Assembly (NCBI GenBank): GCA_964587195.1
Contig: CAZPKN010000003.1
Span: forward strand, 1-61,277
DNA: 61,277 bases
Origin: an uncultured Gammaproteobacteria bacterium
GTDB lineage: Bacteria; Patescibacteriota; Patescibacteriia; Patescibacteriales; UBA12465
Direction of reading: 5' to 3'
Below the pieces are notes generated by a model that saw only the letters and a program-made list of their open reading frames with translations, had not been told where the DNA came from and did no database searches. This document shows, piece by piece, positions 2,920 through 59,823 of the stretch (the stretch's first letter is position 1; each line of letters opens with the position of its first letter). The translations under genes and the position numbers were made by a program.

Positions 2920-3630
2920 ATGACACTTCTTCCTGATGAGGCCTATAGATTTATAAAAAAGAATAAAAATAAACTTATAGAACAGTTTATTTTTGATGGT
3001 ACGGAAAAGAATAAGCGCCCAATCTTTATTTTTATGGCTGGAGCGCCTGGAGCCGGTAAAACGGAATTCTCTAAAAACTTGATTAAAATATTGAAGGAAA
3101 ATATTTGTCGCAGTGGAATTGTGAGGATTGATGCCGATGAAATCAGGGAGAATCTAAAAAAATTCGGTTACGATGGTAGTAATTCAGATGTTTTTAAAAG
3201 GGCTTGCGGAAAAGGAGTGGAAGTTTTATTTGATTATTGTTTGAAAAATAAATTTCACACTGTTTTAGACGGTACGCTTTCTTCATTGGAGATTGCTGAG
3301 AGAAATATTAAGGCTGCGTTAAGTATTTCCGCCGAAGTGTTTGTTATATATATTTATCAAGAACCAGAAATTGCTTGGGGATTTACTAAGCTTAGAGAGA
3401 AAAAAGAGGGAAGACATATTTCTAAAAAATTGTTTATTGAATCACTTTTTCAATCAATACAAAATGTCAATTGGCTAAAAGTCGAGTATGGGAAAAAGAT
3501 TGAAGTCTGGTTAGTAGAAAAAACCATATCTCATAATGTAAAGAAAATAAGATTTAACATAAGCAATATTGACAAACATTTAAAAATAGATTATGCTAGT
3601 TCAGACTTAAATAATAAATTATATGAGTAA
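2920..3630 (+). CDS. Zeta-toxin-family P-loop kinase
   Basis: FMAGAPGAGKT Walker A, RIDADEIR and VLDGTLS motifs typical of the zeta toxin domain. Confidence 0.8.
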   Translation: MTLLPDEAYRFIKKNKNKLIEQFIFDGTEKNKRPIFIFMAGAPGAGKTEFSKNLIKILKENICRSGIVRIDADEIRENLKKFGYDGSNSDVFKRACGKGVEVLFDYCLKNKFHTVLDGTLSSLEIAERNIKAALSISAEVFVIYIYQEPEIAWGFTKLREKKEGRHISKKLFIESLFQSIQNVNWLKVEYGKKIEVWLVEKTISHNVKKIRFNISNIDKHLKIDYASSDLNNKLYE

Positions 3631-3787
3631 TACAAATAATGAAAAGAAATTCTTTGGGCTTGATTCTTCCGATAAGGCAAAAATAGTCCGTAAGGCCGCC
3701 GATTTGGCAAAGAAGGATCAGTTAAATTTGGTTAATAGATACGGAGGAATACAGGCGATTGGTAGTTATTGTAAAACTAATCAATAG
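3623..3787 (+). CDS. 54-aa ORF, candidate partner/antitoxin of the zeta-like kinase (not in ORF track)
   Basis: MSNTNNEKKFFGLDSSDKAKIVRKAADLAKKDQLNLVNRYGGIQAIGSYCKTNQ*; its start overlaps the zeta stop (ATGAGTAA); terminator follows. Confidence 0.6.
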   Translation: MSNTNNEKKFFGLDSSDKAKIVRKAADLAKKDQLNLVNRYGGIQAIGSYCKTNQ

Positions 3788-3798
3788 AAACTTTGATA

Positions 3799-3826
3799 AA
3801 AAACGCTTACCTATTTAGCGTTTTTT
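3799..3826. terminator. Bidirectional intrinsic terminator
   Basis: AAAAACGCT / AGCGTTTTT 9-bp stem. Confidence 0.7.
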
Positions 3827-3857
3827 ATTTTATAGAGAGTGTTATAATTAACTTATT

Positions 3858-4961
3858 ATGACTCAAGAAGCTAAAAAAATAAATGAACTTGCAGATAAAC
3901 TTCTGAAATTAGAGGTAGTTTTAGGATTATCTATAAAACGCGAAAAATTAGCGGATATAAAAAAGCTCCAAGAAAGTCCCGATTTCTGGAATAACAGAGA
4001 AAAGGCGATTTCAGTCGCTCAAGAAGTGGAAGCTGTGTCAGTACAGATTAAGCCTTTTGATAAGTTAAATGAAAATATAAAAGAAGCCAAGGAACTAATC
4101 AGCCTTTTAGAGGATGAAGCCTCAGAAGAACTTTTAAATGAGCTTAATTTGAAAATTATTGATTTAGAAAAGGAGTTAGCTGATTTGGAATTTTTTTCGC
4201 TACTTTCAGAAAAATATGATAATAACGCCGCTTTTATTTCGCTTCATTCCGGAACGGGCGGCGTTGATGCTCAGGATTGGACAGAAATGCTGGAGCGTAT
4301 GTACTTGCGGTTTGCAGAACGGCGCGGTTTTAAGGCCGAGATTTTAGATGTAAATTATGGTAATGAAGCCGGACTGAAAAGCGCTGATTTAAAACTTTCC
4401 GGGCCCTTTGCTTATGGTTATTTAAAGAGTGAAAACGGTACGCATCGACTACTGCGCAATTCGCCTTTTAATGCTGATGGCCTGCGTCAAACATCTTTTG
4501 CCCTAATTGAAGTTATTCCGGAAATACCCGAAAGCGAAGCGGGGGTTATTAAAAACGAAGATGTAAAAATAGACGTTTTTCGCTCTAGCGGTCCGGGCGG
4601 ACAAAGCGTTAATACAACGGACTCGGCTGTCCGTTTAACGCATCTTCCGACTGGCATTGTTGTGTCTTGTCAAAACGAGAGGTCCCAGCATCAGAACAAA
4701 GAAAATGCTTTTAAGATTCTACGGAGTAAATTAGCCCTTTTGGCCATGGAGAAAAGGGAAGAAGAGGAAAAAAATTTAAAAGGGGGCATTAGAAAAGCAG
4801 AGTGGGGAGCGCAGATTCGCTCGTATTGTCTGTATGGCAATAAATATGTTAAAGACCATCGAACTAATCAAGAGACTTCTAATGTTGAAGCGGTTTTAGA
4901 TGGTGATTTAGAAAAGTTTATGGAAGCCTATTTACGCTTTTTGAAAAACCAAACTTCTTAG
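3858..4961 (+). CDS. prfB: Peptide chain release factor 2
   Basis: SPF stop-recognition motif and GPGGQ motif; continuous ORF with no frameshift. Confidence 0.96.
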   Translation: MTQEAKKINELADKLLKLEVVLGLSIKREKLADIKKLQESPDFWNNREKAISVAQEVEAVSVQIKPFDKLNENIKEAKELISLLEDEASEELLNELNLKIIDLEKELADLEFFSLLSEKYDNNAAFISLHSGTGGVDAQDWTEMLERMYLRFAERRGFKAEILDVNYGNEAGLKSADLKLSGPFAYGYLKSENGTHRLLRNSPFNADGLRQTSFALIEVIPEIPESEAGVIKNEDVKIDVFRSSGPGGQSVNTTDSAVRLTHLPTGIVVSCQNERSQHQNKENAFKILRSKLALLAMEKREEEEKNLKGGIRKAEWGAQIRSYCLYGNKYVKDHRTNQETSNVEAVLDGDLEKFMEAYLRFLKNQTS

Positions 4962-33899: not shown

Positions 33900-35717
33900 A
33901 TGGGTCAAGCCGAGGAAATAAAATCTAAATTAGACATTGTCGAAGTTATCCGAGAATATGTTCCGGTTAAAGCGGTCGGGGCTAATTTCCAAGCCTTGTG
34001 TCCTTTTCATAACGAGAAGACCCCGTCTTTTGTAATTTCGCCGGACAAACAGATTTGGCATTGTTTTGGCTGTGGTAAAGGGGGTGATGTTTTTTCCTTC
34101 GTCATGGAAAAAGAAAGTTTAAGCTTTGGCGAGACTCTGCGCCTCTTGGCTCCTAAAGCGGGCGTAGTTTTAAAATATGAAAATAAAGAAGAATATTCTA
34201 AACGTAATCGCTTATTAGATATTTTAGAATTAGCCGGTAAATATTATGCTCATGTTCTAAGCAGCTCCACCGGCCAAGCCGCTTTACGCTATTTAAAAGA
34301 CAGGCGCCTTAAAGAAGAAACAGTTAGTGATTGGCAGCTAGGTTATAGCCCAGATTCTTGGGATAGTTTATATAAATTCCTCAAAGCCCGTCCTTTAACC
34401 GGGCCTAAATATACCGATGAAGAGATTATGGCCGCCGGACTGATTATCAAAAAAGACAGGGCCAGCGGGGGAACTGGCTATTATGATCGTTTCCGCGATC
34501 GTATCATGTTTCCGATTTGGGATGTTAATAATAATTTAATTGCCTTTACGGCGCGTATTAATCCTGAGAAGGAGGCGACGGAAAAAATGGGCAAGTATAT
34601 TAATAGCCCGCAGACCGATGTTTATGATAAAAGTCGAGTATTATTTGCTCTTAATAAAGCGAAATCAGAAATTAGAAAACAGGATTTAGCGATTGTCGTT
34701 GAAGGGCAGATGGATGCGATTTCCTGCCATCAGCAGGGAATAAAGAATGTCGTTGCTTCTAGCGGCACGGCGCTGACAACTGAGCAGGTCACGCTTATTA
34801 AAAGATTTACCAGTAATGTTGCCTTAGCTTTTGATATGGATGCTGCTGGGCAAATGGCGGCTGACAGGGGGATAAAAGAAGTATTGGCTCAAGACTTGAA
34901 TTTACAGGTTATTGTTTTACCGGGAGGCAAGGATCCGGACGAATGTTTGAAGACTGATCCTGATGGCTTTAAAAAAGCTGTCGCCGAAGCTAAGCCGATG
35001 CTTGAATATTATTTTGAAAAAATCAGCACGCCGCTTGATTTAACTAAATTCGATAATAAGACTAAAGTACGTGATCAGATGTTTGCGATGATAGATTTGG
35101 TTAGTAATCAGACCGAGCAGGGGCACTGGCTTAAAAAGCTGGCCGAGGAATTAGATTTTGTTGAAGAAGATGTGCGTAGCGAATTTAAATCCTGGAAGGG
35201 AAAACAGAAAAGCGCTCCGGTTAAGCAGTCTGATAGTCCCCAAATAAAAACCGAGTATCGGTCGCGTGAAGAGAGGTTATCGGAACTGCTCCTGTCTTTA
35301 ATAATTAAATTCCCGGAATTAATAGGATATACTTTAAGCAATTTGGAGCCGGAATATCTAGCCGGCGATGAAGATGTCCGGTTTTACAAGAACCTGATTA
35401 TCTATTATAATAAGACTGCTAGTTTAGATTATGATAATTTTCGGGAGTATTTGGAAGAACAAGGCGAATCAGACGAAAAACTGCTTGATAAGCTAATCCT
35501 TTTAGGCGAAAAGGATTTTTATGATTTTGAGGCTGGTCGGGCTAAAATTGAAACTATTAAAATTATTGTTGAGCTAAAAAAATACGGTTTACAGAAGAAA
35601 ATCAAGAAATTAGAGAAAGAAATTTCTTTAGCGGAAAAAGAGGACCGCCAAGCTGATTTAGAAGTTCTAATGATAGAGCTCAAAACTTTAATGGAAGAAG
35701 TTAAAAAATTAATTTAA
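33900..35717 (+). CDS. dnaG: DNA primase
   Basis: CPFHNEKTPSF zinc finger, KYINSP, VEGQMD and DMDAAG motifs. Confidence 0.98.
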   Translation: MGQAEEIKSKLDIVEVIREYVPVKAVGANFQALCPFHNEKTPSFVISPDKQIWHCFGCGKGGDVFSFVMEKESLSFGETLRLLAPKAGVVLKYENKEEYSKRNRLLDILELAGKYYAHVLSSSTGQAALRYLKDRRLKEETVSDWQLGYSPDSWDSLYKFLKARPLTGPKYTDEEIMAAGLIIKKDRASGGTGYYDRFRDRIMFPIWDVNNNLIAFTARINPEKEATEKMGKYINSPQTDVYDKSRVLFALNKAKSEIRKQDLAIVVEGQMDAISCHQQGIKNVVASSGTALTTEQVTLIKRFTSNVALAFDMDAAGQMAADRGIKEVLAQDLNLQVIVLPGGKDPDECLKTDPDGFKKAVAEAKPMLEYYFEKISTPLDLTKFDNKTKVRDQMFAMIDLVSNQTEQGHWLKKLAEELDFVEEDVRSEFKSWKGKQKSAPVKQSDSPQIKTEYRSREERLSELLLSLIIKFPELIGYTLSNLEPEYLAGDEDVRFYKNLIIYYNKTASLDYDNFREYLEEQGESDEKLLDKLILLGEKDFYDFEAGRAKIETIKIIVELKKYGLQKKIKKLEKEISLAEKEDRQADLEVLMIELKTLMEEVKKLI

Positions 35718-37124: not shown

Positions 37125-37598
37125 ATGGATAATGCCCATAAGATAGGAATAAGCTTTGGTCTAACTTCGGCTGTTATTACCACTCTCGGCTTAATGGCCG
37201 GCTTAGAGGCCGGCACTGGTTCCAAGGGGGCGGTAGTGGCTGGCATACTAACAATTGCCATCGCTGATGCCTTTTCTGACGCTCTAGGAGTCCACCTAGC
37301 TAAAGAATCAGAAGGTAACTTTAAATCCGGTCAAGTTTGGCAAGCAACTTTAGCCACCTTTGGCTATAAGCTGCTTTTTGCCTTAACCTTCCTAGTTCCG
37401 GCTATTTTCCTTGAATCCCCTTGGTCGCTATATGTGGCTATTGCTTGGGGAGCGCTTATCTTAACCGTCTTGAATATTAATATAGCTAAAACAAACGGCG
37501 AAAGAATTGCTAAGGTTTTAGGAGAACATCTAGGCATAGCGGCGGCTGTTGTGATAATTAGTCATCTAGCCGGAAAGGCGATTGCCAGCTTGTTTTAG
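37125..37598 (+). CDS. VIT1/CCC1-like membrane protein
   Basis: FGLTSAVITTLG and IADAFSDALG motifs. Confidence 0.8.
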   Translation: MDNAHKIGISFGLTSAVITTLGLMAGLEAGTGSKGAVVAGILTIAIADAFSDALGVHLAKESEGNFKSGQVWQATLATFGYKLLFALTFLVPAIFLESPWSLYVAIAWGALILTVLNINIAKTNGERIAKVLGEHLGIAAAVVIISHLAGKAIASLF

Positions 37599-37604
37599 GC
37601 CTTA

Positions 37605-37632
37605 TTGACAGACAGGCTGTTTCTGGTAAAAT
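37605..37632 (+). promoter_or_regulatory. Sigma70 promoter for the GIY-YIG/tRNA-Asn unit
   Basis: TTGACA-N16-TAAAAT with TGn extension. Confidence 0.65.
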
Positions 37633-37679
37633 AAGGATATAAAATGTTTTAAGACATTTTTGTTTTTTGGAGACAATTT

Positions 37680-37984
37680 AATATTCCCGGGCACCTGCCT
37701 GCCCTGCCTACCGGCAGGCAGGCGGCAGGCAGGGCGCAATTATAATGTATTTTGTTTACGCCATTCAAAGTTCAAAGGATAGCAGAATATATGTAGGTTT
37801 GAGTTGTGATTATGTCAGAAGAATAAATGAACATAATTTAGGTAGAACTCAATCTACTAAGCCCTATAGACCCTGGGTATTAGTATATTCTGAGCAGTGC
37901 AATTCTAGAAGAGAGGCGAGAAAAAGAGAAAAATATTTCAAGAGTGGTTGTGGTAAAGAGTTTTTAAAATCAAATATTCCCGGG
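37680..37984 (+). mobile_element. 293-bp GIY-YIG/palindrome cassette between 12-bp direct repeats of the tRNA 5' end
   Basis: AATATTCCCGGG at 37680-37691 and 37973-37984 flanks a nested palindrome and a GIY-YIG ORF. Confidence 0.6.
37694..37733. repeat. Nested 20-nt palindromic unit
   Basis: CCTGCCTGC[CCTGCCTACCGGCAGGCAGG]CGGCAGGCAGG. Confidence 0.85.
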
Positions 37985-37987
37985 TAG
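37745..37987 (+). CDS. Small GIY-YIG nuclease
   Basis: YFVYAI...IYVG...RRINEHN...EARKRE; the stop codon lies inside the tRNA. Confidence 0.9.
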   Translation: MYFVYAIQSSKDSRIYVGLSCDYVRRINEHNLGRTQSTKPYRPWVLVYSEQCNSRREARKREKYFKSGCGKEFLKSNIPG

Positions 37988-38052
37988 CGCAGCGGTAGCG
38001 CAGTTGGCTGTTAACCAATTGGTCGTGGGTTCGAATCCCACCCCGGGAGCCA
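37978..38052 (+). tRNA. tRNA-Asn (GTT)
   Basis: Acceptor TCCCGGG/CCCGGGA, anticodon arm GTTGG-CTGTTAA-CCAAT, T arm GTGGG-TTCGAAT-CCCAC, encoded CCA. Confidence 0.97.
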
Positions 38053-39645
38053 ACGTAGATTAAGCGAGGTTAAAGCCTCGTTTTTTCTTTTATTTTCGCC
38101 AAAATATGTCGGTTCGAACCTTGCCATTTCGGCATTAAATTTTTCGACGCTATTTCGGAGCGGAATAAGCCAATTATGATAAGAAATGCTAATGTTTTTA
38201 CCAATTATTGCTTGGTTCGAACCTAACTTCTTAATGATGTTATTTCGTGTTTCTTTGTCTCCTTTATCAAACTCTTTTCGAGCTTGAGCACAGAAAATAA
38301 AATTTTCTTTGGTAAGCTCTATTAATTCTGCCTTGCTTGGTTTTGTCTTAACTTCATTTTGGCTTAAAGCTTCAATCTCGGCTTTTAATTTAGTGCGCTC
38401 AGTTAAATAATCAGCATCGTCAAGCATTTTCTTCATTCTCATACTGTTAAGTTCAGATAGTTGATCTTCTAAATCTTTTATTTGCTTTTCTATATCTAGC
38501 TTAGCTGGTTTTTCTGTTTTATCTTCTTCTGTTTTATTCTTTTCTAAATAATCTAAGGCTAAGCTTAAAAACTGGGGATGCATTTCCAGTCTTTTAAGAT
38601 CGTTTTTAACTTGTTTTTCTAATTCTTCTTCTTGAATAGAACCTTCTTTACAGTCAATTTCTTTTTTCTTATGGGTGCAGTGATAGTAGTGATAGGTTTT
38701 AACTTCATTATCTTCTTTAATATATTTTCTTTTTCTCTCAGCGGTAATAGCACAACCACAAAAACCACAGGTAAAAGTGCCTGAGTACATAAAGTCTAGT
38801 TTTTTAACATTTCTTTTATTGCCTCTTAAGCCTAATAATTCTTGAATACGATTATAGTCTTCAAGACTGATTATCGGCTTATGTTTACCAGGGCTTTCTT
38901 TGCCGTTATAAGTGATAATACCGGCATAAAATGAACTAGTTAGCATTTTATACCAAGTACTTCGAGCCAGTGGCCTGCCGCCAGTTTTAGCCTTAGCTCT
39001 AGTTGTGTATTTCCATTCATTATTTAATTTATCGAGCACCTCTTGGGCGGTATAATTGCCAGTTAAAAAGAGCTTAAAAGCCTCTTTTAGAAGCGGTGCA
39101 CGTTTTTTATCGATAATTAGTGTTCTTTGACCTTTCTCAAGCCTCATATCGTTTAAATAGCCCTCAGGAGCCACTCCAGGAAGCCATCCGAGAGATACTT
39201 TCTTCTCTAAACCACGTTTTACATCCTTACCTAGTTTAGAGGAGAAATATTGAGATTGACTAAGAGCTAGTTGAAGCATCATTATACCTTCCGGAGAATT
39301 GTCAAAATTATATGATCCGAATTTTAAGTCTTTAATAATGCCAGTACGCACCAAATAGGTAATAGTTGAGGCATCTATTTCGTTTCTTGATAATCTATCA
39401 GGATGCCAGGCAATAATACCATGCGCTTCACCCTTTCTTATCCTTTTAATCATATCAGCGAAAACTGGCCGATTGTATGGCGAAAAAGCGCTATGTTTTT
39501 CTTCCATAACTTCAACAATTTCTAAGCCGCTAAAAAACTCGCGCACTTTATCCATTTGACTTTCAATGGATAAAGCTTGTCTTTCATCGCCTTCGGTTGA
39601 TTTGCGGACATAGGCAAAATATTTAATTGGATTTTCGCTGTTCAT
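38011..39645 (-). CDS. Large serine recombinase (integrase)
   Basis: AYVRKST catalytic Ser, recombinase domain, CGFCG...YYHC zinc ribbon, coiled coil; start MNSENP at 39645; C-terminus reads through the tRNA antisense. Confidence 0.95.
   Translation of the reverse strand: MNSENPIKYFAYVRKSTEGDERQALSIESQMDKVREFFSGLEIVEVMEEKHSAFSPYNRPVFADMIKRIRKGEAHGIIAWHPDRLSRNEIDASTITYLVRTGIIKDLKFGSYNFDNSPEGIMMLQLALSQSQYFSSKLGKDVKRGLEKKVSLGWLPGVAPEGYLNDMRLEKGQRTLIIDKKRAPLLKEAFKLFLTGNYTAQEVLDKLNNEWKYTTRAKAKTGGRPLARSTWYKMLTSSFYAGIITYNGKESPGKHKPIISLEDYNRIQELLGLRGNKRNVKKLDFMYSGTFTCGFCGCAITAERKRKYIKEDNEVKTYHYYHCTHKKKEIDCKEGSIQEEELEKQVKNDLKRLEMHPQFLSLALDYLEKNKTEEDKTEKPAKLDIEKQIKDLEDQLSELNSMRMKKMLDDADYLTERTKLKAEIEALSQNEVKTKPSKAELIELTKENFIFCAQARKEFDKGDKETRNNIIKKLGSNQAIIGKNISISYHNWLIPLRNSVEKFNAEMARFEPTYFGENKRKNEALTSLNLRWLPGWDSNPRPIG
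38034..38054 (+). repeat. tRNA 3'-end direct repeat, left copy (contains the inferred attL core GAGC at 38047-38050)
   Basis: AATCCCACCCCGGGAGCCAAC, identical to 59803-59823. Confidence 0.9.
38062..38086 (+). terminator. Element-supplied terminator for tRNA-Asn
   Basis: CGAGG / CCTCG stem plus T run, lying antisense inside the recombinase CDS. Confidence 0.65.
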
Positions 39646-59670: not shown

Positions 59671-59823
59671 GTGGGTAAGAATGAGAACCCTCGGGTTCGC
59701 ACTGCCGAGGATAGCGAGGAATCGCCAGCCTGCCTGCCGGTAGGCGGGCTTGCTGGCAGTTCCGAGCGGCGCAGGCAGAATAGGGCGGCTTTGCCGCCCT
59801 ATAATCCCACCCCGGGAGCCAAC
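59671..59823 (+). repeat. tRNA-Asn 3' fragment with a T loop interrupted by GC-rich hairpins
   Basis: GTGGGT / GGGTTCG ... AATCCCACCCCGGGAGCCAAC; includes the 20-nt palindromic unit at 59729-59748. Confidence 0.7.

Follow-up and report, generated by a model that had tools for sequence, protein, structure and literature searches.

Endonuclease genes linked to tRNA genes are already known, among them that of SegB of phage T4 and HNH genes beside tRNA arrays, as are minimal Slx1-like GIY-YIG proteins in bacteria. SegB has more than 200 residues and includes a DNA-binding region; we know of no tRNA overlap, pseudo-tRNA or palindrome associated with it. It is a GIY-YIG homing endonuclease with a 27-bp recognition site that contains a conserved tRNA T-arm motif, and its gene lies among tRNA genes, which serve as both neighbors and targets; break repair spreads the gene together with flanking tRNA genes (PMC2330249). 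Here, we describe a cassette at positions 37692-37984 of contig CAZPKN010000003.1 (assembly GCA_964587195.1; the window is the whole stretch analyzed, 61,277 nucleotides (nt)), in which a short GIY-YIG open reading frame (ORF) stands between a palindrome-interrupted piece of tRNA sequence and an intact tRNA-Asn gene. Whereas SegB is a phage protein associated with a T-arm motif, the product of this ORF is a bare catalytic domain of 80 amino acids (aa), encoded in cellular chromosomes and associated with the D-loop.

The best sequence and fold matches to this protein are UPF0213 proteins (YhbQ, COG2827) and Slx1, with which it shares the stand-alone minimal domain, a form of the GIY-YIG (Slx1-like) domain that has been described as ancestral (PMC1564403). 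Slx1 differs in being a repair enzyme that acts on branched DNA together with Slx4, and it is not mobile; the searchable open-access literature describes no comparable genomic behavior for the UPF0213/Slx1 family. Integrase-type tRNA-targeting elements are similar in that they insert within a tRNA gene, supply a replacement tRNA segment that keeps the gene functional and leave a partial tRNA copy as a scar. These elements use tyrosine or serine recombinases, replace the 3' part of the gene and are kilobases long, whereas the cassette replaces the 5' part (the 3' part in a mirror form), spans about 300 bp and has a GIY-YIG gene as its sole gene, without a recombinase. Group I introns with homing endonuclease genes in bacterial tRNA anticodon loops are likewise selfish insertions that keep the tRNA functional; they rely on RNA splicing, whereas the cassette restores function at the DNA level by duplication.

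Short, dispersed, GC-rich palindromes are known from repetitive extragenic palindromic sequences and bacterial interspersed mosaic elements (REP/BIME) with their REP-associated tyrosine transposase (RAYT), from yeast GC clusters and from the PstI palindromes of Neurospora, which flank tRNA genes. Mitochondria with such palindromes are also rich in GIY-YIG genes, and RAYT is an HUH (TnpA-like) enzyme with REPs on both sides. The palindrome of the cassette, hereafter P, resembles REP/BIME and the fungal mitochondrial palindromes as a short GC-rich dispersed palindrome in an AT-rich genome, with copies that adjoin a nuclease gene. It differs from REP/RAYT in that one exact 20-mer is shared across phyla, lies inside tRNA-derived sequence and occurs on one side of the gene only, and in that the nuclease is of the GIY-YIG rather than the HUH type. 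Open-access papers and preprints, queried also with the palindrome string, contain no description of this architecture, and an earlier note on this DNA knew of no named element class with exactly this layout. The combination of a bare GIY-YIG domain fused to a regenerated tRNA 5' end, a P-interrupted pseudo-tRNA arm at a fixed loop position and spread across phyla by isotype is apparently undescribed. It is a real possibility that nuclease and palindrome together constitute something more distinct than a free-standing homing endonuclease gene.

A 293-bp insertion in a tRNA-Asn gene

We favor, with moderate confidence, the reading of 37692-37984 as a selfish homing-like cassette, in which a minimal Slx1/UPF0213-type GIY-YIG nuclease gene has inserted in tRNA-Asn, the tRNA gene has been regenerated, and tRNA sequence serves as portable homology arms. 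The earlier note had proposed a tRNA-targeting cassette on the grounds that a 12-mer is duplicated 293 bp apart with a palindrome and an 80-aa GIY-YIG ORF between the copies, and all of these parts are present (Table 1). Both copies of the 12-mer, AATATTCCCGGG, are exact, and the direct repeat around them can be extended to 15 matching positions of 17. The window holds no further copy with one mismatch or fewer, 0.48 being expected window-wide. Since tRNA-Asn(GTT) starts at 37978, the 12-mer consists of five leader bases and tRNA nt 1-7.

The tRNA-Asn loci of relatives were retrieved via homologs of the VIT-like membrane protein encoded upstream. The locus whose neighbor protein is 78% identical (L212) is an empty allele, in which the conserved promoter and leader, ending in caatttaatat, run directly into tcccgggtagcgcagcggtagcgcag and the rest of an intact tRNA-Asn; L208-L211 (79%) show the same arrangement. 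L206 (98%) is filled at the same position and has one canonical P. L207 (86%) has no GIY-YIG gene and carries a group I intron with an HNH ORF in the anticodon loop. The window is longer than these precise empty alleles by exactly 293 bp, which identifies 37692-37984 as an insertion. In L207, the tRNA-Asn anticodon loop is split (3561-4054) by a 102-aa HNH ORF together with the core of a group I intron, which matches RF00028 (E 1e-7) and is truncated by the contig end. Given this intron and the cassette in the window and L206, two different selfish elements exploit one tRNA-Asn gene in sister lineages.

The alternative that a chance 12-mer lies beside an ordinary housekeeping gene upstream of a tRNA would accord with the shortness of the repeat and with the vertical persistence of the ORF, whose synonymous divergence (dS) from L206 is about 0.8. 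It is refuted by the uninterrupted site in relatives, by the architecture shared across the family and by the enrichment of the duplication at homologous loci described below, and we give it almost no credence.

The window sequence through the first 12-mer copy matches the empty alleles at 84-93 of 93 nt, and this copy is the remnant of the original tRNA 5' part. P is a perfect 20-bp palindrome, CCTGCCTGCCGGCAGGCAGG. The 40-nt palindrome of the window consists of an outer P (CCTGCCTGC / CGGCAGGCAGG) interrupted after nt 9 by an inner P (CCTGCCTACCGGCAGGCAGG, 37703-37722); the palindrome is thus a conserved 20-bp element, here nested in itself, and not an incidental feature. The pseudo-copy reads TCCCGGG, CA, the palindrome and GCGCA, where the canonical order would be nt 1-20, P and nt 21 onwards. 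Judged by comparison with the tRNA, GCGCA is a remnant of the tRNA sequence that normally continues past P. An 11-nt internal deletion of tRNA nt 8-18 is common to the window and L206, and its effect is that just the 12-mer still shows in the window. The earlier note had named two outcomes that would count against its proposal, a lack of empty alleles in relatives and a lack of enrichment of such duplications around homologs; both checks came out in its favor, and the proposal is supported, with refinements. The 12-mer is a remnant of a longer tRNA 5' copy, normally nt 1 to ~21, and not a target-site duplication. Because the 12-mer is an eroded tRNA 5' arm and P is a conserved element, the D-loop, and not nt 7/8, is the likely break point.

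The ORF overlaps the tRNA by 10 nt (tRNA nt 1-10), and tRNA nt 8-10 supply its stop codon, TAG (37985-37987), as the earlier note had read it. The near-consensus promoter, kept in the empty alleles, is the native tRNA-Asn promoter and presumably drives the pseudo-tRNA remnant, the ORF and the tRNA as a single transcript. The window scan found no promoter on the + strand for the ORF alone, and the sole terminator-like site on this strand lies 3' of the tRNA. Co-transcription with the tRNA, as claimed earlier, is the natural reading because the native tRNA promoter lies upstream and no terminator precedes the tRNA; these two features are present, and co-transcription itself is what we infer from them. 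A candidate internal ORF promoter, a TATAAT-like spacer found in several Patescibacteria loci, was rejected, being absent or misplaced in the window, L206 and Bacteroidota. Within the 293 bp, the GIY-YIG gene is the sole ORF, P is the single palindrome and lies at one end, and there is neither a transposase nor terminal inverted repeats. The Rfam scan of the window matched tRNA-Asn only, with no ribozyme (RF00028). The window corresponds to ENA contig ERZ724080 NODE_477; in the contig's own record (L201, 3474-3887) no gene is called for the GIY-YIG ORF, and the L206 counterpart (3602-3844) is called; the overlap with the tRNA probably makes gene callers miss such ORFs at times.

Table 1. Parts of the tRNA-Asn locus in the window
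Feature	Position	Strand	Evidence and remarks
Promoter TTGACA-16-TAAAAT, TG-extended	37605..37632	+	Scan score 11/12; same sequence upstream of uninterrupted tRNA-Asn in L207, L208-L212
12-mer copy 1	37680..37691	+	Native leader AATAT and pseudo-tRNA-Asn nt 1-7 (TCCCGGG, 37685-37691)
Compound palindrome	37694..37733		Fold -36.8 kcal/mol, z -3.1
GCGCA, tRNA-Asn nt 21-25 (D-stem 3' strand and 1 nt)	37734..37738	+	Direct comparison with tRNA; GCGCAG here in L206
80-aa GIY-YIG ORF	37745..37987	+	Pfam GIY-YIG, E 8.5e-16; Slx1/UPF0213 type
12-mer copy 2	37973..37984	+	Encodes ORF C-terminal N-I-P-G; supplies leader and nt 1-7 of functional tRNA
Intact tRNA-Asn(GTT)	37978..38052	+	ARAGORN; Rfam RF00005, 72.8 bits
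Intrinsic-terminator-like hairpin and T run, closing the transcription unit	38062..38093	+	Terminator scan (site 38062-38083)

The encoded GIY-YIG domain

The ORF scores 58.5 bits against PF01541 (cutoff 22.6) and contains no other Pfam domain, the single domain accounting for the 80 aa. Tyr5, Tyr16, Gly18, Arg26, His30 and Glu62 are invariant in 35 aligned sequences and agree with the catalytic residues of GIY-YIG enzymes. Searching PDB sequences with a profile retrieved the UPF0213 proteins 1ywl (9.7e-11) and 1zg2 (4.4e-10), which correspond to EF2693 and BH0048, followed by SLX1 (1e-4). The AlphaFold (AF2) model, with a predicted local distance difference test score of 94.1, adopts the GIY-YIG fold, a three-stranded sheet flanked by helices. 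The top Foldseek matches are UPF0213, Slx1 and the I-TevI catalytic domain; the model superimposes on the Slx1 nuclease domain with a template modeling (TM) score of 0.70 and a root-mean-square deviation of 1.6-2.0 Å, and more poorly on the I-TevI catalytic domain. Taken together, alignment and model indicate a minimal stand-alone Slx1/UPF0213-type GIY-YIG domain, a predicted nuclease. The ratio of nonsynonymous to synonymous divergence (dN/dS) relative to L206 is 0.26, which argues that the ORF is under purifying selection. The family comprises 829 clusters (50% identity) at E <= 1e-10. The protein has no match in NCBIfam, PADLOC or PHROGs and none in the plasmid collection, and one weak match was found in the phage collection.

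Recurrence of the architecture at tRNA genes

A survey of one genome per species, using a profile from a 10-sequence alignment, yielded 80 homologous loci, to which the mapping of ORFs onto tRNAs adds the window. A same-strand tRNA adjoins 73 of the 91 near-full-length ORFs, starting within a few bases of the ORF end in 61 cases and ending just upstream of the ORF in 12. The other 18 ORFs are mostly inner tandem units, lie at contig ends or face a tRNA copy beyond ARAGORN recognition. The occupied tRNAs are Asn, Arg (four anticodons), Leu (five anticodons), Lys, Phe, Ile and Glu, and the hosts belong to Patescibacteria, Bacteroidota, Ignavibacteriota and Omnitrophota. The stop codon arrangement of the window recurs, with 19 ORFs ending on nt 8-10 of Asn, Arg, Phe or Ile tRNAs; tRNA-Leu has TGG at these positions, and the Leu-linked ORFs mostly have their own stop 1-15 nt before the tRNA. 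The earlier note had suggested a survey of homologs for duplicated tRNA 5' ends. With one mismatch or fewer, tRNA nt 1-12 are copied within 200 nt upstream of the start codon at 42 of 61 loci, as against a single case in control regions twice as long.

The common plan, read 5' to 3', consists of the native promoter/leader region, the tRNA 5' part from nt 1, P, the next 9-13 nt of the tRNA, a short AT-rich spacer, the ORF and the intact tRNA. The two arms beside P are unequal. The arm distal to the ORF normally spans tRNA nt 1 to ~21 and reaches nt 1 in 29 of 39 units, while the ORF-proximal remnant amounts on average to 23% of what could be kept, typically 9-13 nt. Three loci (L033, L060 and L075) have the mirror form, in which the intact tRNA is followed by the ORF, a 7-9-nt remnant, P and the complete remaining 3' part of the tRNA; here, the asymmetry of the arms is reversed with the orientation. 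Exact tandem units are present in L001, L029 and L075, and many homologous loci stop at a contig edge right at the element, as repeats do.

P or a close variant occurs at 64 of the 80 homologous loci (89 copies in 410 kb). The D-loop holds 45 of the 56 sites that could be mapped, and 35 of these fall exactly between the last D-loop base and the D-stem 3' strand. Of the remaining mapped sites, 4 are within a stem, and the others are at nt 9/10 or fall inside or on the border of the anticodon loop or T-loop. Wherever the flanks of P can be mapped on the neighboring intact tRNA, they are contiguous, with no target duplication.

These features bear on whether the cassette could have moved by conventional transposition with a 12-bp target duplication, or by mini-circle integration through a recombinase such as the neighboring serine recombinase. 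Direct repeats at both ends would be expected from such a process, the large serine recombinase gene lies immediately downstream, and the tandem units would also fit repeated circle integration. However, the repeat ranges from 12 to ~39 nt across loci and is always the tRNA 5' part, with no fixed stagger; the cassette lacks terminal inverted repeats and a transposase; and the recombinase belongs to a separate 21.7-kb island with its own 21-bp tRNA 3'-end repeat and is absent from the loci read through. We regard this explanation as very improbable.

The mean identity between ORFs is 0.63 for the same isotype within a phylum and 0.62 for the same isotype in different phyla, and it falls to 0.54 for different isotypes in either case. 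The nearest neighbor from another locus shares the isotype for 55 of 62 ORFs and the phylum for 39 of 62. Thus, on the identity values, the protein lineages track the tRNA isotype and not the host phylum, and this discordance with host phylogeny points to horizontal spread.

The link to isotype would also be expected if the protein acted at the RNA level. In that case, it would act on the tRNA, with the D-loop position as the scissile site, and the pseudo-tRNA with P would be a co-transcribed uncleavable decoy or regulator, as in a type III toxin-antitoxin system; a host role in tRNA processing is a variant of this idea. The precise placement of P at a single loop position, flanked on either side by retained tRNA sequence, and the arrangement of the parts as a single transcription unit, would suit such a role. 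What counts against it is that GIY-YIG domains are, to our knowledge, DNases, without any described member that acts as an RNase. The reversal of the flank asymmetry with gene orientation is predicted by recombination and not by a decoy; empty alleles, tandem arrays and pseudogenized copies such as L080 point to a dispensable mobile gene, and PADLOC gives no match. An action on RNA is therefore improbable in our estimation, even though Slx1-like domains occur in prokaryotes fused to TrmH, the methyltransferase that forms Gm18 in the D-loop (PMC1564403).

Decay and further rearrangements are visible at several loci. Among copies in cultured Flavobacteriia, the EHN motif of the L080 ORF (~3001-3243) is interrupted by an in-frame TAA, and an in-frame TGA occurs in the first unit of L075 (2661-2885); orthologous or neighboring copies, namely L055 (from Winogradskyella immobilis) and the second L075 unit, are intact. 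Pseudo-tRNA arms within 200 nt upstream of the ORFs in L003, L004, L013, L017, L024, L034 and L062 contain GC-rich hairpins unrelated to P, such as CCTCCCAGAGGGAGG and TCCACCTTCGCCAAGGCTTCGGTGGA, which either accompany P or replace it, so several small-palindrome families appear to accumulate in pseudo-tRNA remnants. Nested tRNA genes without an ORF were found in L024 (~2000-2350, tRNA-Pro), L115 (190-400, tRNA-Ala), L159 (1-330, tRNA-Val) and L132 (7090-7400, tRNA-Ser). In each, a complete tRNA interrupts an older copy of itself in the region of the anticodon loop, and the halves of the older copy stand on either side. A short inverted repeat flanks the inner tRNA in L024 and L115, and the older halves hold P or other GC hairpins in three of the four loci (not L024).

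A proposed homing-like mechanism

The homing-like reading is supported by the empty alleles, the enrichment of the 5' duplication, the mostly D-loop position of P, the asymmetry of the arms, the tandem units, the isotype-linked lineages, the invariant catalytic residues, the Slx1-like fold and the low dN/dS. SegB of T4 provides a precedent, being a GIY-YIG homing enzyme that reads a conserved motif of tRNA genes (PMC2330249). In the mechanism that we propose, the nuclease would break the tRNA gene at the place where P sits, mostly the junction of the D-loop and the D-stem 3' strand. The break would then be repaired by copying from a filled locus, with the broken tRNA copy and the intact tRNA as homology arms; because tRNA sequence is conserved, such arms would be usable in any genome. 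The distal arm would be the recipient's own DNA up to the break, and for this reason it would run exactly from the tRNA end to P, while the ORF-proximal remnant would be short. The same break-repair model would account for the reversed asymmetry of the mirror form. Tandem arrays may be by-products of cutting at the regenerated site followed by repair out of register. The direct repeats would be split by P and by subsequent deletions, of which the window shows one of 11 nt, and this splitting would stabilize the insertion against recombinational loss.

Expression would follow from the position of the gene. Without a promoter of its own, it would be read from the tRNA promoter. RNase P, by cleaving where the tRNA begins, would sever the message 7 nt before the stop codon, so that the last 10 nt of the ORF, including the stop, would be lost, and this cut would hold nuclease levels low.

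Weighing the homing-like reading against the dispersal of P

Several observations weigh against the homing-like reading. The pseudo-copy is disrupted by P, yet next to the gene the intact tRNA has been regenerated and has an identical D-arm; the proposed target is thereby left in place, and the self-immunity that is usual for homing elements would be lacking. No DNA-binding module is present in the 80-aa domain, which lacks an obvious way of reading a long site. Moreover, the model does not predict the constant ORF-proximal remnant of ~11 nt. For the window and L206, the dS of the ORF is 0.83, as compared with 0.9 for rpoD, so the window cassette has been inherited vertically for long, with no rapid turnover. 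The two sequences are 97-100% identical over ~480 bp up to P and 69% thereafter, a step that fits, weakly, a recombination boundary at P; the ORF is not the segment most similar between them, and other mosaic patches exist. A further set of points concerns P itself. Among the 127 P sites in the metagenome matches listed, 118 have no homolog of the nuclease within 400 bp, and exact P occurs also in 35 viral contig stretches. Because P is found at many sites with neither a GIY-YIG gene nor a tRNA nearby, its role may differ from the one that the homing model assigns to it.

The divergence between the window and L206 is a mosaic of patches at 95-100% (34716-35015 and 37213-37693) in a background of 80-90%, one of which ends exactly at the palindrome. 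Independent acquisition of the two cassettes, considered from the contrast between ORFs at 71% and a neighbor protein at 98%, was dropped: the dS of 0.83 is like the 0.9 of rpoD, and the VIT gene is unusually similar.

The exact-match scan of metagenome contigs recovered P in at least 120 stretches. Among the matches listed, the hosts range from 29 to 71% GC and few sites are near a tRNA. Long ORFs hold P less often than expected, at 57% of sites as against 87% of random positions. P is thus a dispersed repeat in its own right. When P was removed and ARAGORN rerun, four otherwise intact tRNA-Arg genes carrying P emerged at the GIY-YIG loci, and no hidden tRNA genes were recovered at the metagenome P sites. 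A general preference of P for hairpin loops was rejected, as flank pairing and loop placement at 121-123 dispersed sites are no better than random; its targeting of hairpin loops holds only for tRNA loops and P itself. Many of the dispersed copies (L081-L200, L213-L247) lie inside short tandem repeats of 7-14-nt units (cgtacctcgtaaat, attgtaaatt, tccgcaa, gagaggt), with the unit repeated to the left and right of P. A T run follows some of them, which makes these terminator-like, and in the viral contigs L214 and L237, P is located in a tRNA-Met-like T-arm.

On this basis, a palindrome-centered, REP/RAYT-like explanation can be formulated, in which P as a hairpin or cruciform is the true substrate of the nuclease, the nuclease spreads P, and the link to tRNA arises when P, or P with the gene, lands preferentially in DNA that encodes tRNA loops. 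It draws on the dispersal of the exact 20-bp sequence through genomes of such different GC content and through viral contigs, mostly far from GIY-YIG genes, and on its depletion in long ORFs. P also inserts near the center of P (the window, L030, L067 and L071), occurs in D-, anticodon and T-loops and in the four tRNA-Arg genes, and has a compensated variant in L052 with A8 paired with T13, and the closest structural relatives of the protein are structure-specific nucleases. However, this explanation leaves the fusion of the gene to the intact tRNA 5' end and the asymmetry of the arms unaccounted for, the dispersed sites show no hairpin-loop preference, and only 9 of the 127 listed sites lie within 400 bp of a homolog. 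We judge it unlikely. A related idea, which we put forward tentatively and with low confidence, is that the Slx1-like structure-specific nuclease and P form a two-part mobile system, in which DNA that forms hairpins or cruciforms (the DNA encoding tRNA arms, and P itself) would be cut and P would be planted at the breaks. The homing-like reading remains the one that we prefer for the cassette.

A probable second insertion at the same tRNA

A 21-bp exact repeat of the tRNA-Asn 3' end, beginning in the T-loop, is present at 38034-38054 and 59803-59823 and flanks an island at 38053-59802 (~21.7 kb, with a lower GC content of 22-37%). The island encodes the large serine recombinase, an inovirus-type replication protein (REP_ORF2-G2P), a Zot-like ATPase, a very AT-rich glycosyltransferase cluster and a secreted thrombospondin type 1 domain protein. 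It resembles an element, or several stacked elements, integrated at this tRNA, and fits the definition of an integrase-type tRNA island. L212, one of the relatives with an empty allele, lacks it. The recombinase gene (38011-39645, - strand) ends inside tRNA-Asn, its last 14 codons being antisense to tRNA nt 34-75, so the C-terminus of the recombinase would depend on the integration junction. The stretch at 59690-59802, which immediately precedes the second copy of the tRNA 3' end, is GC-rich and filled with hairpins. Here, a P variant, CCTGCCTGCCGGTAGGCGGG (59729-59748), lies in the loop of another inverted repeat and GGGCGGCtttGCCGCCC abuts the T-loop breakpoint; the stretch resembles the decorated pseudo-tRNA 3' pieces of the mirror-image loci.

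Implications

If the homing-like reading is correct, it would give a role to the very common 80-aa GIY-YIG genes now annotated as hypothetical (the 829 clusters above) and explain both their location at tRNA genes and the broken assemblies around them. It would also reveal a homing route for a nuclease without a DNA-binding domain, which carries pieces of a universally conserved gene as arms and borrows a promoter and a stop codon. Pseudo-tRNA pieces, P-bearing tRNA genes and nested tRNA genes will confuse tRNA annotation in Patescibacteria and Bacteroidota. As members of the family occur in cultured Flavobacteriia, the mechanism is directly testable, and an enzyme that cuts a defined tRNA-gene site or a palindrome could serve as a reagent. 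Should the nuclease and P instead form a two-part system, it would be one that remodels tRNA genes and scatters one exact palindrome over several bacterial phyla and their viruses, in effect a GIY-YIG analog of REP/RAYT that is based at tRNA genes.

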